A DNA stretch of 60,717 nt, the filler included, from Dugesia japonica (Eukaryota): the NCBI GenBank assembly GCA_001938525.1. It is 5 parts of 5 records of this genome, joined end to end, with 100 filler letters (N's around TTAATTAATTAA, not from the genome) between each part and the next. Parts side by side here need not be neighbours in the genome. Positions count along the whole stretch, not along the records: positions 22,624 to 36,631 come from MQRL01587459.1; 4 more parts are not named here. The stretch is one strand, 5' to 3'. The notes below the pieces were generated by a model, which saw only the letters and a list, made by a program, of their open reading frames with translations, made no database searches and was not told the DNA's origin. How positions within the stretch are numbered: the first letter of the stretch is position 1; each line of letters opens with the position of its first letter. Positions 22,624 to 36,631 of the stretch are shown here, piece by piece. Made by a program: the position numbers and the translations under genes.

Positions 22624-23100
22624 GGGGGGGGGGGTAAGATAGAACACTACAACACTATAAATGTAAAATGTAAAGTAAAAAATGATGGATGAAAAATGTT
22701 GGATGAAAAACATTAGATGAAAAATTTTTTATGAAAATGTTGGTTTTAGATCGGGGGGTAAGGTGCCACACTGCAACACTACAAATGTTGGATGTAAAAT
22801 GCAAAGTGAAAAATATCGAATTTTGATGAAAAATTTTATATAAAAAATATTTTATGAAAAATGTGTTTAAAGCCGGGGGGTAAGATACGACACTACAAAT
22901 GTCAGATGAAAAATGCAAAGTGAAAAATGTTGGATGAAAAATGTCGAGCGAAAAATTTCACACGAAAAATATTTTATGAAAATGCAAAGTGAAAAATATT
23001 TTATGAAAATGTTGCATGAAAAATATTTTATGAAAAAAGTGTAAAATGTAAAGTGTAAAATGTAAAGTGAAAAATGTTGCATGAAAAATATTTAAGAGGA
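22624..23100. repeat. Repetitive (sub)terminal region of the Polinton
   Basis: Three G-run-headed units (GGGGGTAAG..ACACTA(C/T)AAATG at 22624, 22753, 22875) plus many TGAAAAA/GTAAAATGT units; non-coding. Confidence 0.6.
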
Positions 23101-23126
23101 AAAAATATCAAATTTTTCATATAGAA

Positions 23127-24004
23127 ATGAGTGCTCAGAAAAAAGTTGTTCAAGAAGAAAAAATTAAATGTGAATTAACATTAGTTTCATTAATAAATTC
23201 ATTAGAAGAATTTGGAGATATAGAAGAGATGAATTTAGATGAATTAAAAGAATATTTAAAAAATGATTTAACAAAAGATACCGCAAAACATTATTTAGAT
23301 TATCTTTCTAAAGTGTATAAAAAATTAGATGAAATAAATTTAGAAGAAGAAAATAAAAATTTATTTAAAAAAGTAATGAATGTTATTGTTACAAAATATA
23401 CAGAAAGTGAAAGTCGAGGTTTAATGGTTGAATTATTTAAGAAAAAGNNNNNNNNNNNNNNNNNNNNNNNNNNNNNNNNNNNNNNNNNNNNNNNNNNGAA
23501 TTAAAAGAATATTTAAAAAATGATTTAACAAAAGATACCGCAAAACATTATTTAGATTATCTTTCTAAAATGTATAAAAAATTAGATNNNNNNNNNNNNN
23601 NNNNNNNNNNNNNNNNNNNNNNNNNNNNNNNNNNNNNNNNNNNNNNNNNNNNNNNNNNNNNNNNNNNNNNNNNNNNNNNNNNNNNNNNNNNNNNNNNNNN
23701 NNNNNNNNNNNNNNNNNNNNNNNNNNNNNNNNNNNNNNNNNNNNNNNNNNNNNNNNNNNNNNNNNNNNNNNNNNNNNNNNTAACAAAATTAAATGAAAAA
23801 GTAAAACCAATAAAAGTTGGAGATGTTTTAATAAAAGTTTATAATAAACCAGGTAAAAAGAAAAAAAGATTAACTGCTAAACGTTATAATGTTTTACTTG
23901 AAGATGAAGATATTAATGATTTTTCTACAGAAAAATATACTCGCATTCCAGCTAAAAAAGAAATTACTGGAGCAAATAGAGTTTATGTTAAAAAATCACA
24001 ATAA
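23127..24004 (+). CDS. Polinton hypothetical protein (gapped; helical N-terminus, basic C-terminus)
   Basis: ORF pieces 23127-23447 and ~23781-24004 separated by gaps; may be one or two genes. Confidence 0.55.
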
Positions 24005-24017
24005 GAAATAGCGAAGC

Positions 24018-24383
24018 ATGGATGATAATTCAGTTTTTTATAAAATGTTAAAGGAATATGATTTTAAAGATAACTCTATACAAAGTTTTTGTAAAATTTA
24101 TAATGTAAATGGTAATATAGTAAAGAAATATTTAAAGATGTGGAATATCGAATNTAACGCCAGAACATGGAACCCTGGTAGAAATTTACAAAGAAATTCA
24201 CATGGATGTTTCATTTCTTTAATAGACCGTTTTGAGAAACAACATGTTAAACCACCTATTAATCAACCTGTTAAACTAAATGTTAAACTAAATTTTAAAC
24301 CAAATGTTAATTGTGGTGATAATTATGATGATTTTATTTGTGAGATGGAAAAAATAAACAAAATAAAGTTTACAGTAAAGTAG
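24018..24383 (+). CDS. Polinton hypothetical protein, 121 aa
   Basis: Clean ORF preceded by the TAAGAAAT motif. Confidence 0.6.
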   Translation: MDDNSVFYKMLKEYDFKDNSIQSFCKIYNVNGNIVKKYLKMWNIEXNARTWNPGRNLQRNSHGCFISLIDRFEKQHVKPPINQPVKLNVKLNFKPNVNCGDNYDDFICEMEKINKIKFTVK

Positions 24384-24495
24384 CCTTATGTTATATTATC
24401 TTGTATTATATGTGGTTAAAGTTATATTTTAGTTAAGTTAACATATAGATAAATAAAAAAAACACATGCATAAAAAAACACTCTAAGAAATAGAA

Positions 24496-33721: not shown

Positions 33722-33799
33722 TTCTTAATGAAAAACTTTAGCTTGCGCAGGTTGACTGTTAACATTTAAAATGTTTCATGTAAAATCTCTTGTGTAAAA

Positions 33800-34412
33800 T
33801 CAAAAATATTTCATTTTATATTTATCATAAATCTTGTTAGATATTAAACCCATCATCTTTAATTTTTTACATACTTTTTTAATATCTTCAGATAAATTAT
33901 CATGTCCAGATTTTGCTGCTGAAATTAATAATGTTAACCTTTCAAATAAATTTATAAGACTAAGAGATTCTCCTTTCTTTTGTCTTGGTTTTGGTTTTGG
34001 TTTAATAGGGGTGTCTATTATTTTTGATTTTAAAAATTTAATATATTCATTACCAACTGGTGTGTTTTTTACTATTTCATTTAAATATATTCTAATATTT
34101 TCTAACATATCATCAGAATTATCAGTTTCTATTGTTTTCTTATTACCACAAATTATATCCACAATTATATCTGAATATTCATATTTTTTTCCACCAACCG
34201 AAAAATATTGTTTATCATCAATGTTAAAGAAAAATATAAGCACATTACTACTAGTAAAAGATAATCTTGTAAATTCTTTTTTACCAGTTATTGCTTTGCC
34301 TACTAATGGCAATATTTTTAGTTGAATTATATTTTTATTGAATTCTATTTTTGGGTAAAATGGTGTTATATTATCTTTTCTTAAAAAAATTTAAAAATTC
34401 TCCATCTTTCAT
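33800..34412 (-). CDS. Conserved Polinton hypothetical protein; true start uncertain, likely frameshifted upstream
   Basis: C-terminus KKG..LFERLTLLISAAKSGHD...LKMMGLIS resembles a recurrent Polinton L.RL.LL...AGN motif. Confidence 0.55.
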
Positions 34413-34743
34413 TGTTATTTCTAAATTATATTTATTAGGTTTAAAATAATCTGGTTCGTCTATTGGTTGTTCTTTATTAACAAAACTATTTTTTTCTATT
34501 GCTGTAATTGTTGGTTTTTGTAAAATGGATAAATTACTTTGTAATTCTCTTGACTCAATAACATTNNNNNNNNNNNNNNNNNNNNNNNNNNNNNNNNNNN
34601 NNNNNNNNNNNNNNNNNNNNNNNNNNNNNNNNNNNNNNNNNNNNNNNNNNNNNNNNNNNNNNNNNNNNNNNNNNNNNNNNNNNNNNNNNNNNNNNNNNNN
34701 NNNNNNNNNNNNNNNNNNNNNNNNNNNNNNNNNNNNNNNNNNN

Positions 34744-35200
34744 TATAAGGATTAAAGTAAAGACCATCACCATCTATTTTTATTTGGATGCCATCTTTAA
34801 ATTTTTTTGTTACATCTTTCATGTTATCATCTTCAATAATATTTTTTAAATGTTTATGTATAGCAGTTCCTTGATAAGGATTTAAATATATTCCGGCGCC
34901 AGATTTTTTGACAGCCTCGCTGTCAATCTGTTGAATTTCCTTCCGAACTTTAATTGCATTTCTAGAATTAGTAACAGTACTTGCTATTCCAGATGCAATA
35001 CTAGCAGTTCCGGCTAAAGCTCCGATAATTGCTGGGATTGCAGCTAGAAAAGCAAATCCTCCTTCTTTAGCAGAATCCCTTCGGGATTTTAGCTTTTCTT
35101 TTACTTTTTTAGAAATATAATAATTTTTACCATCTATTTTTACAGATTTACATTTTTTTGAATTTATTATTTTTTCTAATTCTTCTTCAGTCGGATTCAT
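34744..35200 (-). CDS. Adenovirus pX-like core/membrane-active precursor (3' end in gap)
   Basis: Basic N-terminus then KEGG-FAFLAAIPAIIGALAGTASIASGIASTV; two G.G(I/L)Y.NPY motifs. Confidence 0.65.
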
Positions 35201-35208
35201 TTCTTATA

Positions 35209-36631
35209 TTAACAATTTAAGCATGTTAGTGTACGATTTATCATCTCTAATCTTAAATGCCACATTAAACATATTAAACAATAACATTTATTACCATGAG
35301 GCCAAGTTGTTGAACCATTATCTTCAATAATTCTTTTATCATCAAAAGCCATTAATCCATTCTTTTTTTGTTTAACTAATTCAATTTTATGACAATCTGA
35401 TTTTAATGAATAATTTGTTGCATAAATTATTTTACTAGGATCTTCTAATACTAAATCAAAATCTGACATTAATAATTTATTATTTTTCTTAACACCTTTA
35501 TTTCTTGAATCAAATTTATCACCGTAAGTATATCCATAAGATTTTGCTTTTATAAAATTACCTTGAGTTATTTCAGAATTAGGTAATTCATCTTTTATCT
35601 GAAATAAATCATCTCCTAATAAAGTTTTTAATCTCTCTAAATTATCTCTACCTTTTATCTCAACAAAGATACTATCAGTATCTCCGTAATGAATTTTATA
35701 ATTATCATTTCCACAAAGATACTATCAGTATCTCCGTAATGAATTTTATAATTATCATTTCCTATTAATGGATCCATTTGTTCGTATATAAAATCATACA
35801 GTACTTGTTTTGCATGTTCAAGAATTGTGAATCCTATATAAGGAAATTTATTATATTTTAATTTACCTTTTGTCATGTTCATTGCTGCAACATTAGCTTC
35901 ATTTGAATCATTTCTTGTAAAAATTTTACTTGATTTAAAATTTACTTTAGATGCAAACTTTTGATAATCTTTGTCATTGTCAACTATTTCTAGGTTACAT
36001 CTATTTCTAATATTTTCTAATGTTTTTCCATAGAATGCATTCAACATTAATTTATAAACATAATCACNNNNNNNNNNNNNNNNNNNNNNNNNNNNNNNNN
36101 NNNNNNNNNNNNNNNNNNNNNNNNNNNNNNNNNNNNNNNNNNNNNNNNNNNNNNNNNNACTTTTGTTAATTTCATTCCAAGTTTTACATATAAATCTAAA
36201 GTACTTCCTAAACATACATAATTTTTCTTATCAAATTGATTCAATGTAAGTTTAATATTTTTCTTTGATAATTTCTTATTAAATGATTTTTGATAATTAC
36301 TTAACATATCTTCTGTAATATTTATTCTTTCTGGTGCTAATGGGAAATATTTAGTTTTATCATGAATTTCAGGTGGATATTCCAAATCAACTTCATAAAT
36401 ATAATTAATTTCATCTGTTGCAATTTCATACGTCAGCTCGTTGCACTCGCTTATTTCACCTGTTGGTAAAGGTCTTGTCATGCAACTTGCATTTAAAGAA
36501 TTTTCATCAATATATTTTATAAATGTTTCTGTGAAATAATCATCTGGAATATTTTCATTTAATAATTTAAGAAGATCTTCTCTTTGTGCTTTATTTATTT
36601 GTCTAAAAGGTTTTGATTTATTATAACTAAA
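35209..36631 (-). CDS. polB: Protein-primed family B DNA polymerase, C-terminal half (N-terminus beyond the contig end)
   Basis: YIDENSLNASCM..PLPTG, YEVDLEYP..HD..FPLAPE, KLMLNAFYGK, YGDTDS, FDDKR..TWPHG; a 50-bp duplication near 35660-35760 breaks the frame. Confidence 0.93.

Follow-up and report, generated by a model that had tools for sequence, protein, structure and literature searches.

In the Maverick cycle, an excised linear copy of the element is replicated by the protein-primed polymerase pPolB, the A32 ATPase packages the DNA into a shell of major capsid protein (MCP) and penton with a pX-like core protein, the adenain protease matures the particle, and the rve integrase re-inserts the DNA. 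The present study concerns an element of this kind from Dugesia japonica, located on scaffold MQRL01587459.1 of assembly GCA_001938525.1, which fills positions 22624-36631 of the window (the whole stretch of DNA analyzed here, 60.7 kb in length). The virophage mavirus, whose host is a protist and whose helper is a giant virus, has the penton fold, rve integrase and pPolB in common with this element, at 12-14% identity. Six core genes define Mavericks, also called Polintons (PMC4028283). The element shares pPolB, rve integrase, A32 ATPase, adenain, double jelly-roll MCP and penton with members of the class Polintoviricetes such as Polinton-1_SM and Polinton-2_SM of Schmidtea mediterranea and Polinton-1_HM of Hydra. 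Among planarians, Polintons carrying genes for MCP, penton, ATPase and protease are already catalogued, namely two of Schmidtea (PMC4028283 Table S1), and planarian Polintons are known as piRNA targets (PMC8532177).

Maverick, Polinton and adintovirus are treated as synonyms in one recent framework (bioRxiv 2026.06.19.733378), while the strict definition of an adintovirus calls for an integrase with a C-terminal chromodomain and a PolB carrying an OTU-like domain at its N-terminus, together with a hexon recognizable from reference adintovirus hexons and vice versa (bioRxiv 2024.03.25.586562). Adintoviruses (Starrett 2021, PMC8502044; Buck 2024) have adenovirus-like virion genes, an integrase, a Beta-like PolB, phospholipase A2 (PLA2) and pX-like domains in common with the Dugesia element, and mixed pairings of Alpha and Beta features have been reported in them (10.1101/2024.03.25.586562). 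However, their PLA2X is a stand-alone protein ending in pX and their integrase ends in a chromodomain, whereas the Dugesia element has a fused PLA2, a separate pX-like protein and no chromodomain. PLA2 has been described in such elements as a stand-alone gene (PMC8502044, PMC5803895, PMC4642659, PMC3671162, PMC11296320). Polinton-1_SM and Polinton-2_SM were compared here by size and gene content, and the passages of PMC4028283 consulted make no mention of a PLA2-integrase fusion.

We consider it probable that the scaffold carries an incomplete, likely mosaic copy of a high-copy Maverick/Polinton family, likely inherited in an animal genome. The family possesses a complete set of capsid genes and a PLA2-integrase protein for which packaging and cleavage by adenain are predicted. 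The element itself is an ordinary Maverick/Polinton, maybe one already catalogued; its conserved PLA2-integrase fusion is the unusual trait.

Results and Discussion

A PLA2-integrase fusion with protease-type sites

A single 438-aa open reading frame (ORF; 25851..27167, + strand) encodes both PLA2 and integrase, the former absent from the preliminary description of this scaffold. In order, it comprises a short N-terminal peptide, an IKGG|D site, a parvovirus-type PLA2 domain, an IIGK|G site and the rve integrase. The PLA2 domain (PF08398, E 4e-8) has the GPG loop, H100-D101, Y104 and D116, and the integrase (PF00665, E 1.6e-11) has D211, D270 and E304. No chromodomain (PF00385) was found in the integrase, the ORF stopping at residue 438, while some relatives do have PF00385. 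The PLA2 His-Asp pair is retained in 99 of the 121 proteins aligned, and all but one of these (98 of 99) retain the integrase D-D-E as well, so the fusion is not an accident of assembly. The fusion is shared with the metagenomic relatives P0001, L012, L003 and L004 and with XP_065642663.1 of Hydra vulgaris, a species with two RefSeq proteins among the fusion relatives. In a quick tree of the 99 proteins out of 121, the window protein sits on a long branch (0.81); the best identities to the closest relatives are 55% for the integrase, 48% for the penton and 42% for the MCP.

The adenain consensus is (M/I/L)XGG|X or (M/I/L)XGX|G (PMC4246237), and both IKGG|D and IIGK|G fit it. These two glycine sites are the sole (M/I/L)xGG or (M/I/L)xGxG matches in the window's fusion ORF. 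In relatives, GG immediately upstream of PLA2 is present in 56 of the 81 rows having sequence there, although it lies outside the Pfam domain, and GxG or GG immediately downstream is present in 93 of 98 rows; by an alignment-based count, the background is 0.2-0.3% when windows of equal length are taken from the integrase core. From these sequence features we infer that the fusion is a virion-packaged polyprotein, predicted to be cut by the element's own adenain into PLA2 and integrase. No statement of a PLA2-integrase fusion was found in the literature searched, which excluded Repbase reports and most subscription papers.

In the mechanism that we propose, the particle would receive, as one polyprotein, both the integrase and a PLA2 able to breach membranes; cuts at the two glycine sites would then release them, in analogy to the packaging and maturation of Pol by retroviruses. 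An 820-aa repeat protein, described below, may act as the receptor-binding fibre of such a particle.

Capsid, packaging and polymerase genes

The element coincides exactly with one scaffold of 14,008 bp (996 N, 23% GC), on which approximately 13-14 densely packed, intronless ORFs are arranged in two convergent blocks, and reading frames span 94% of the scaffold with N runs counted in. Relatives were compared across 82 loci encoding integrase relatives, where tblastn identified the ATPase in 38 loci, the protease in 27, the penton in 14 and the N-terminal part of the MCP in 8. The MCP gene (24496..25824, + strand) is read in three frames: it is broken near 25125-25179, and the frame shifts again over a gap near 25660-25695. 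Its N-terminal part in the window itself matches PF21738 at E 0.02 only; all 14 relatives aligned to the window piece match this family, and through them the protein is assigned a predicted double jelly-roll fold. It has 33-42% identity to the MCP of L012, which likewise directly precedes a PLA2-integrase. The penton, or minor capsid protein (33044..33721, - strand), is intact at 225 aa and has 683 relatives at E<=0.001. A model based on a 116-sequence alignment reached a pLDDT of 96.5 (29.9 for the single-sequence fold) and resembles the single jelly-roll penton of mavirus (Foldseek E 2e-9; VIA Z 13.6, rmsd 6.4, 219 aligned), followed by the pentons of Sputnik, PBCV-1 and adenovirus. No penton relatives were found in IMG/VR, and the profiles of the MCP, the penton and ORF10 gave no significant match in sequence searches of PDB.

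Next to the penton lies an intact adenain-type cysteine protease (32612..33040, - strand), whose H66, D77, Q100 and C107 are invariant among 19 aligned sequences and whose profile, built from those 19, matches adenain 1avp at E 3.5e-9. In two relatives (L082:188-1471 and L081:274-1803), the adenain domain opens much longer ORFs of 428 and 510 aa, which suggests possible further fusions in the clade. The A32/FtsK-like packaging ATPase (27171..28086, + strand; Pox_A32 PF04665, E 1.5e-8) has a frame break near 27930-27941, a Walker A motif partly within an N run, a Walker B motif reading IIFDD, and a 105-bp arm duplicated over a 50-N gap. A core protein (34496..35200, - strand) contains a GG-F-hydrophobic segment resembling adenovirus pX and has its C-terminal part in an N gap; its profile, A4, matches pX (9lr9_E) at E 1.2e-4, and its gene stands apart from PLA2.

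Only the C-terminal third of pPolB is present (35209..36631, - strand), read in three frames and cut by the scaffold end; it aligns with residues ~850-1280 only of a 1282-aa relative. It carries the motif YGDTDS and a perfect 50-bp tandem duplication at 35663-35762, and it is 27-42% identical to full-length relatives, with weak Pfam PolB matches. No Pfam match to PF03175 was found in it. Its nearest matches (L027, L076, L037 and L002) all lack PF03175, and of the PF03175-bearing loci, L038 gave no tblastn match and L001 a weak one. In Starrett's terms the polymerase is accordingly classed with the Beta-like group, as judged by the nearest PolBs, and two features of Alpha adintoviruses, a PF03175-class PolB and a stand-alone PLA2X, are absent.

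The preliminary description had identified a Polinton with a virion module, made up of about 13 intronless, packed ORFs in two convergent blocks, and this is borne out: the rve integrase, packaging ATPase, adenain, and major and minor capsid proteins are all confirmed, as are jelly-roll capsid proteins for the ORFs at 24496 and 33044. The polymerase is likewise present, although only as its last third. However, the assignment as adintovirus-type fails under the strict definition because the integrase lacks a chromodomain, and the term near-complete was an overstatement given the N content, the partial pPolB and scaffold ends without inverted repeats. As for its suggestion of a lineage undescribed in this host, Polintons of planarians that carry all four virion genes are already on record.

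Scaffold limits and relation to catalogued families

Only part of a Maverick/Polinton is contained in the scaffold. The window consists of five scaffolds joined via N44-TTAATTAATTAA-N44 linkers, and the artificial linker at 22524..22623 shows that the left limit of the element is a scaffold end rather than an element end; a second linker (36632..36731) closes the right side. The non-coding left region (22624..23120, + strand) contains three ~125-bp units beginning GGGGG(G)TAAG plus 14-bp tandem repeats, which are likely subterminal repeats whose terminal inverted repeat (TIR) partner is not among the scaffold sequence. No inverted repeat was found between the two scaffold ends, the scaffold being cut within pPolB, and its content is element DNA only. 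Several frame breaks fall at 50-N gaps flanked by two arms of repeated sequence, some pairs being exact and others diverged (the 105-bp ATPase arms are 95% identical), and another falls at the perfect 50-bp duplication in pPolB. Duplicated gap arms together with such breaks are the signature of collapsed copies, and the scaffold sequence is likely a mosaic of copies, which looks cleaner than any single copy.

It is quite possible, if somewhat short of probable, that the family is one already catalogued, for example Polinton-1_SM or Polinton-2_SM of Repbase, or an expanded Dugesia Maverick. The two Schmidtea elements measure 14,867 and 15,944 bp and carry MCP, penton, ATPase and protease genes (PMC4028283 Table S1), and Mavericks have been described as expanded in Dugesia (bioRxiv 2025.12.11.693146). 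However, once the missing ~2.5 kb of pPolB are added, the Dugesia element would be somewhat longer than both, an estimate blurred by the gap duplications. Such an identity would be compatible with the polyprotein mechanism and would remove the novelty of the element itself.

Copy population and expression

Between 30 and 39% of sampled words from the element were present in 7 runs (4 samples, 3 studies, one organism label). In the two runs compared in depth, which date from 2014 and 2025 and come from different studies, 56,235 (X2) and 55,337 (X3) contigs were placed on the stretch, and their identity classes are nearly alike: ~10% of contigs at >=99% identity, 23% at 95-99%, 44% at 90-95% and 22% below 90%. 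Since the identity spectrum is similar in two studies, these data favour a diverse family of many inherited copies over an episome. Co-assembly of a contaminant, or of a free (episomal) virus, with the host would agree with a scaffold that holds element DNA only, with no host flank; however, a heterogeneous population with an equal identity spectrum in both years is expected of inherited copies and not of independent infections, which makes this explanation extremely improbable. Summed contig depth was not used as copy number. It amounts to 25,000-112,000 in core-gene bins and to 300-7,000 over ORF1-2, over ORF8-9 and over most of the 820-aa ORF, some of the low values being due to N gaps; given this far lower depth, the accessory genes appear to be subfamily-specific or fast-changing.

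Transcripts were sought in two RNA libraries, read to 6% and 25% (~24 million reads). Only 544 reads were placed, 6 of which fit over their whole length, and we infer that the family is mostly silenced in these two libraries. No RNA run was listed among the carriers of the sampled words, and rows of doubtful RNA type with a small share of them were left aside.

These data bear on several further points of the preliminary description. Its suggestion that the frameshifts derive from collapsed copies agrees with the differing gap arms and with ~55,000 divergent contigs per run. Episomal origin, which it had left open, is unlikely. It had also held that the ORFs are better preserved than those of neighbouring transposons: the element does have longer open frames (759 and 446 aa versus <=265 aa in transposon debris), but those transposons lie on unlinked scaffolds. 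Recent activity, which had been deduced from this comparison, is possible, but the argument loses its footing given unlinked scaffolds, a likely mosaic and a codon-position test (below) with p 0.12.

Accessory genes and upstream motif

The largest accessory gene is the 820-aa ORF (30147..32609, - strand), which has an MNKFG...GDT start, a charged helical-type segment and three tandem ~190-aa domains, the first two matching each other at E 8e-26. It adjoins the protease, a place where several relatives carry a KFG...GD-type fibre or lectin gene, and from this position and motif only it is likely a vertex fibre or spike, although the call is a weak one. Its repeats gave no match to Pfam, and the ORF gave only weak matches in Atlas (0.90, recognition 1658). 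Among the related loci, fibre-like ORFs at L044:1368-2612, L045:7603-8631 and L069:6255-7295 have a discoidin-like lectin domain of F5/8 type C at their end. A 206-aa protein (29517..30137, - strand), hydrophobic over a stretch in its middle, is conserved in relatives (8 loci), and the ORF14 region (33800..34390, - strand) has one weak relative, L041, at E 7e-5. ORF1 (23127..24004, + strand), in gap-separated pieces with one arm duplicated, and the 121-aa ORF2 (24018..24383, + strand), which matches no Pfam family, have no relative in the 82 loci. ORF8 and ORF9 (28102..29454, - strand), possibly a single gene, consist of acidic low-complexity EIQDE-type repeats duplicated over a gap, and no relative was found for them. 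Short GC-rich words (GTCCAGC, CGAAGTCC and AGCGAAGC) are dispersed through the AT-rich element, some of them in-frame within ORFs, at 28970-29015, 30084-30101, 31875-31892, 24010 and 25830; they could represent a hairpin or a small mobile element.

For 7 of 11 ORF starts (background 0.026), the motif TAAGAAAT lies no more than 30 nt upstream, in the span from 24002 to 35206, at 24002, 24484, 25822 and 27165 on the + strand and at 29474, 33727 and 35206 on the - strand; the broader [AGT]TAAG precedes 6 of 11 (background 0.082). Enrichment for TAAGAAAT was seen in none of 24 larger related loci, and three use TAAATG instead upstream of their ORF starts (L001 7/9, L054 10/11, L065 6/6), which we take to resemble the poxvirus late motif. 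One could suppose that the element is helper-dependent in the manner of a virophage, with a helper resembling a baculovirus or nudivirus supplying the late RNA polymerase that recognizes the upstream TAAG. In baculoviruses TAAG serves as the late initiator (PMC8789824), insect adintoviruses were mobilized in baculovirus-infected cells (PMC8502044), and at 4 of the 7 sites the TAA is not the stop codon of the upstream gene. However, the motif was chosen post hoc, its lack of enrichment in related loci would fit an element-specific stop/start arrangement plus translation context, and no helper virus is known for the element, so that we regard this supposition as very improbable.

Weighing the packaged-polyprotein reading

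A further explanation is that the fusion stays uncut, its glycine motifs serving only as flexible linkers or belonging to the PLA2 fold, in what would be mainly an intracellular transposon whose virion module is decaying. We judge this to be unlikely. It would account for the splitting of the MCP, ATPase and pPolB genes over frames, for the 90-95% identity of most contigs, for the scarcity of RNA in the two libraries and for the often non-consensus P4 residue at the downstream site of relatives. On the other hand, the penton, protease and fusion ORFs are open with their catalytic residues intact, the conserved upstream GG lies beyond the Pfam domain, and several of the breaks coincide with duplications at gaps, as assembly typically produces.

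The interpretation that we prefer, a packaged polyprotein encoded by a likely inherited family, nevertheless has several points standing against it. Particle formation and protein cleavage are both predictions. P4 at the downstream site is Lys in most relatives rather than M/I/L, and the downstream KxKxGxG motif may, by comparison with parvovirus VP1, mark nothing more than where the PLA2 fold ends. No host junction, TIR or target site duplication was seen in the scaffold or in the short contigs placed on it, and one of the two runs compared could itself have supplied the assembly. There is no more than a hint of purifying selection between copies: the ATPase arms differ by 4 synonymous and 1 non-synonymous change, and 12 of 26 codon-position variants (taken from 40 shown of 1,139) fall at third positions, which is not significant (p 0.12). 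Finally, scores as high as that of the 820-aa fibre call arose in 3 of 500 shuffles, and no homologue of this ORF was found among candidates of 451-1435 aa, the range that the search covered, shorter and longer proteins lying outside it.

Other features of the window

The four companion scaffolds gave zero blastn matches to the element scaffold and are therefore not its genomic neighbours. They hold Ty3-like debris (Pfam), debris that by its motifs is mariner-like and hAT-like, and one gene for a membrane protein with leucine-rich repeats (LRRs) and an immunoglobulin (Ig) domain. The scaffolds of the window have 23-32% GC and TAA microsatellites. The LRR-Ig gene (51670-53502) reads as intronless, with a signal-like start, LRRs, an Ig domain and a transmembrane-like stretch; it has a single relative, at 63%, which matches its C-terminal half, and a phage search with it gave no match. 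Its LRR-Ig architecture points to an animal, and the low GC and TAA microsatellites would suit a planarian; of 7 window proteins looked up in an exact-match collection, none was present. An Rfam search returned 0 matches. The scaffold preceding the element closes with a 30-bp tandem array of 16 copies (89% matches; 22043-22523), outside the element, and a long acidic (Asp/Glu) low-complexity frame made of TCATCC-type repeats lies at a scaffold start (14206-15064).

Implications

Whether animal Mavericks give rise to infectious particles, and how their integrase gets to a new nucleus, are open questions in the field. A phospholipase is an entry enzyme and is sensible only for a particle; a conserved PLA2-integrase fusion with flanking protease-type sites would tie integration directly to the virion phase. 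The broader proposition, that a wide animal Maverick clade has a packaged, adenain-matured PLA2-integrase polyprotein, with particle-capable copies still present in a much-sequenced animal and fast-changing tandem-domain fibre heads, is tentative and in our estimation rather doubtful. If true, it would amount to a retrovirus-like strategy that is not stated in the literature searched.

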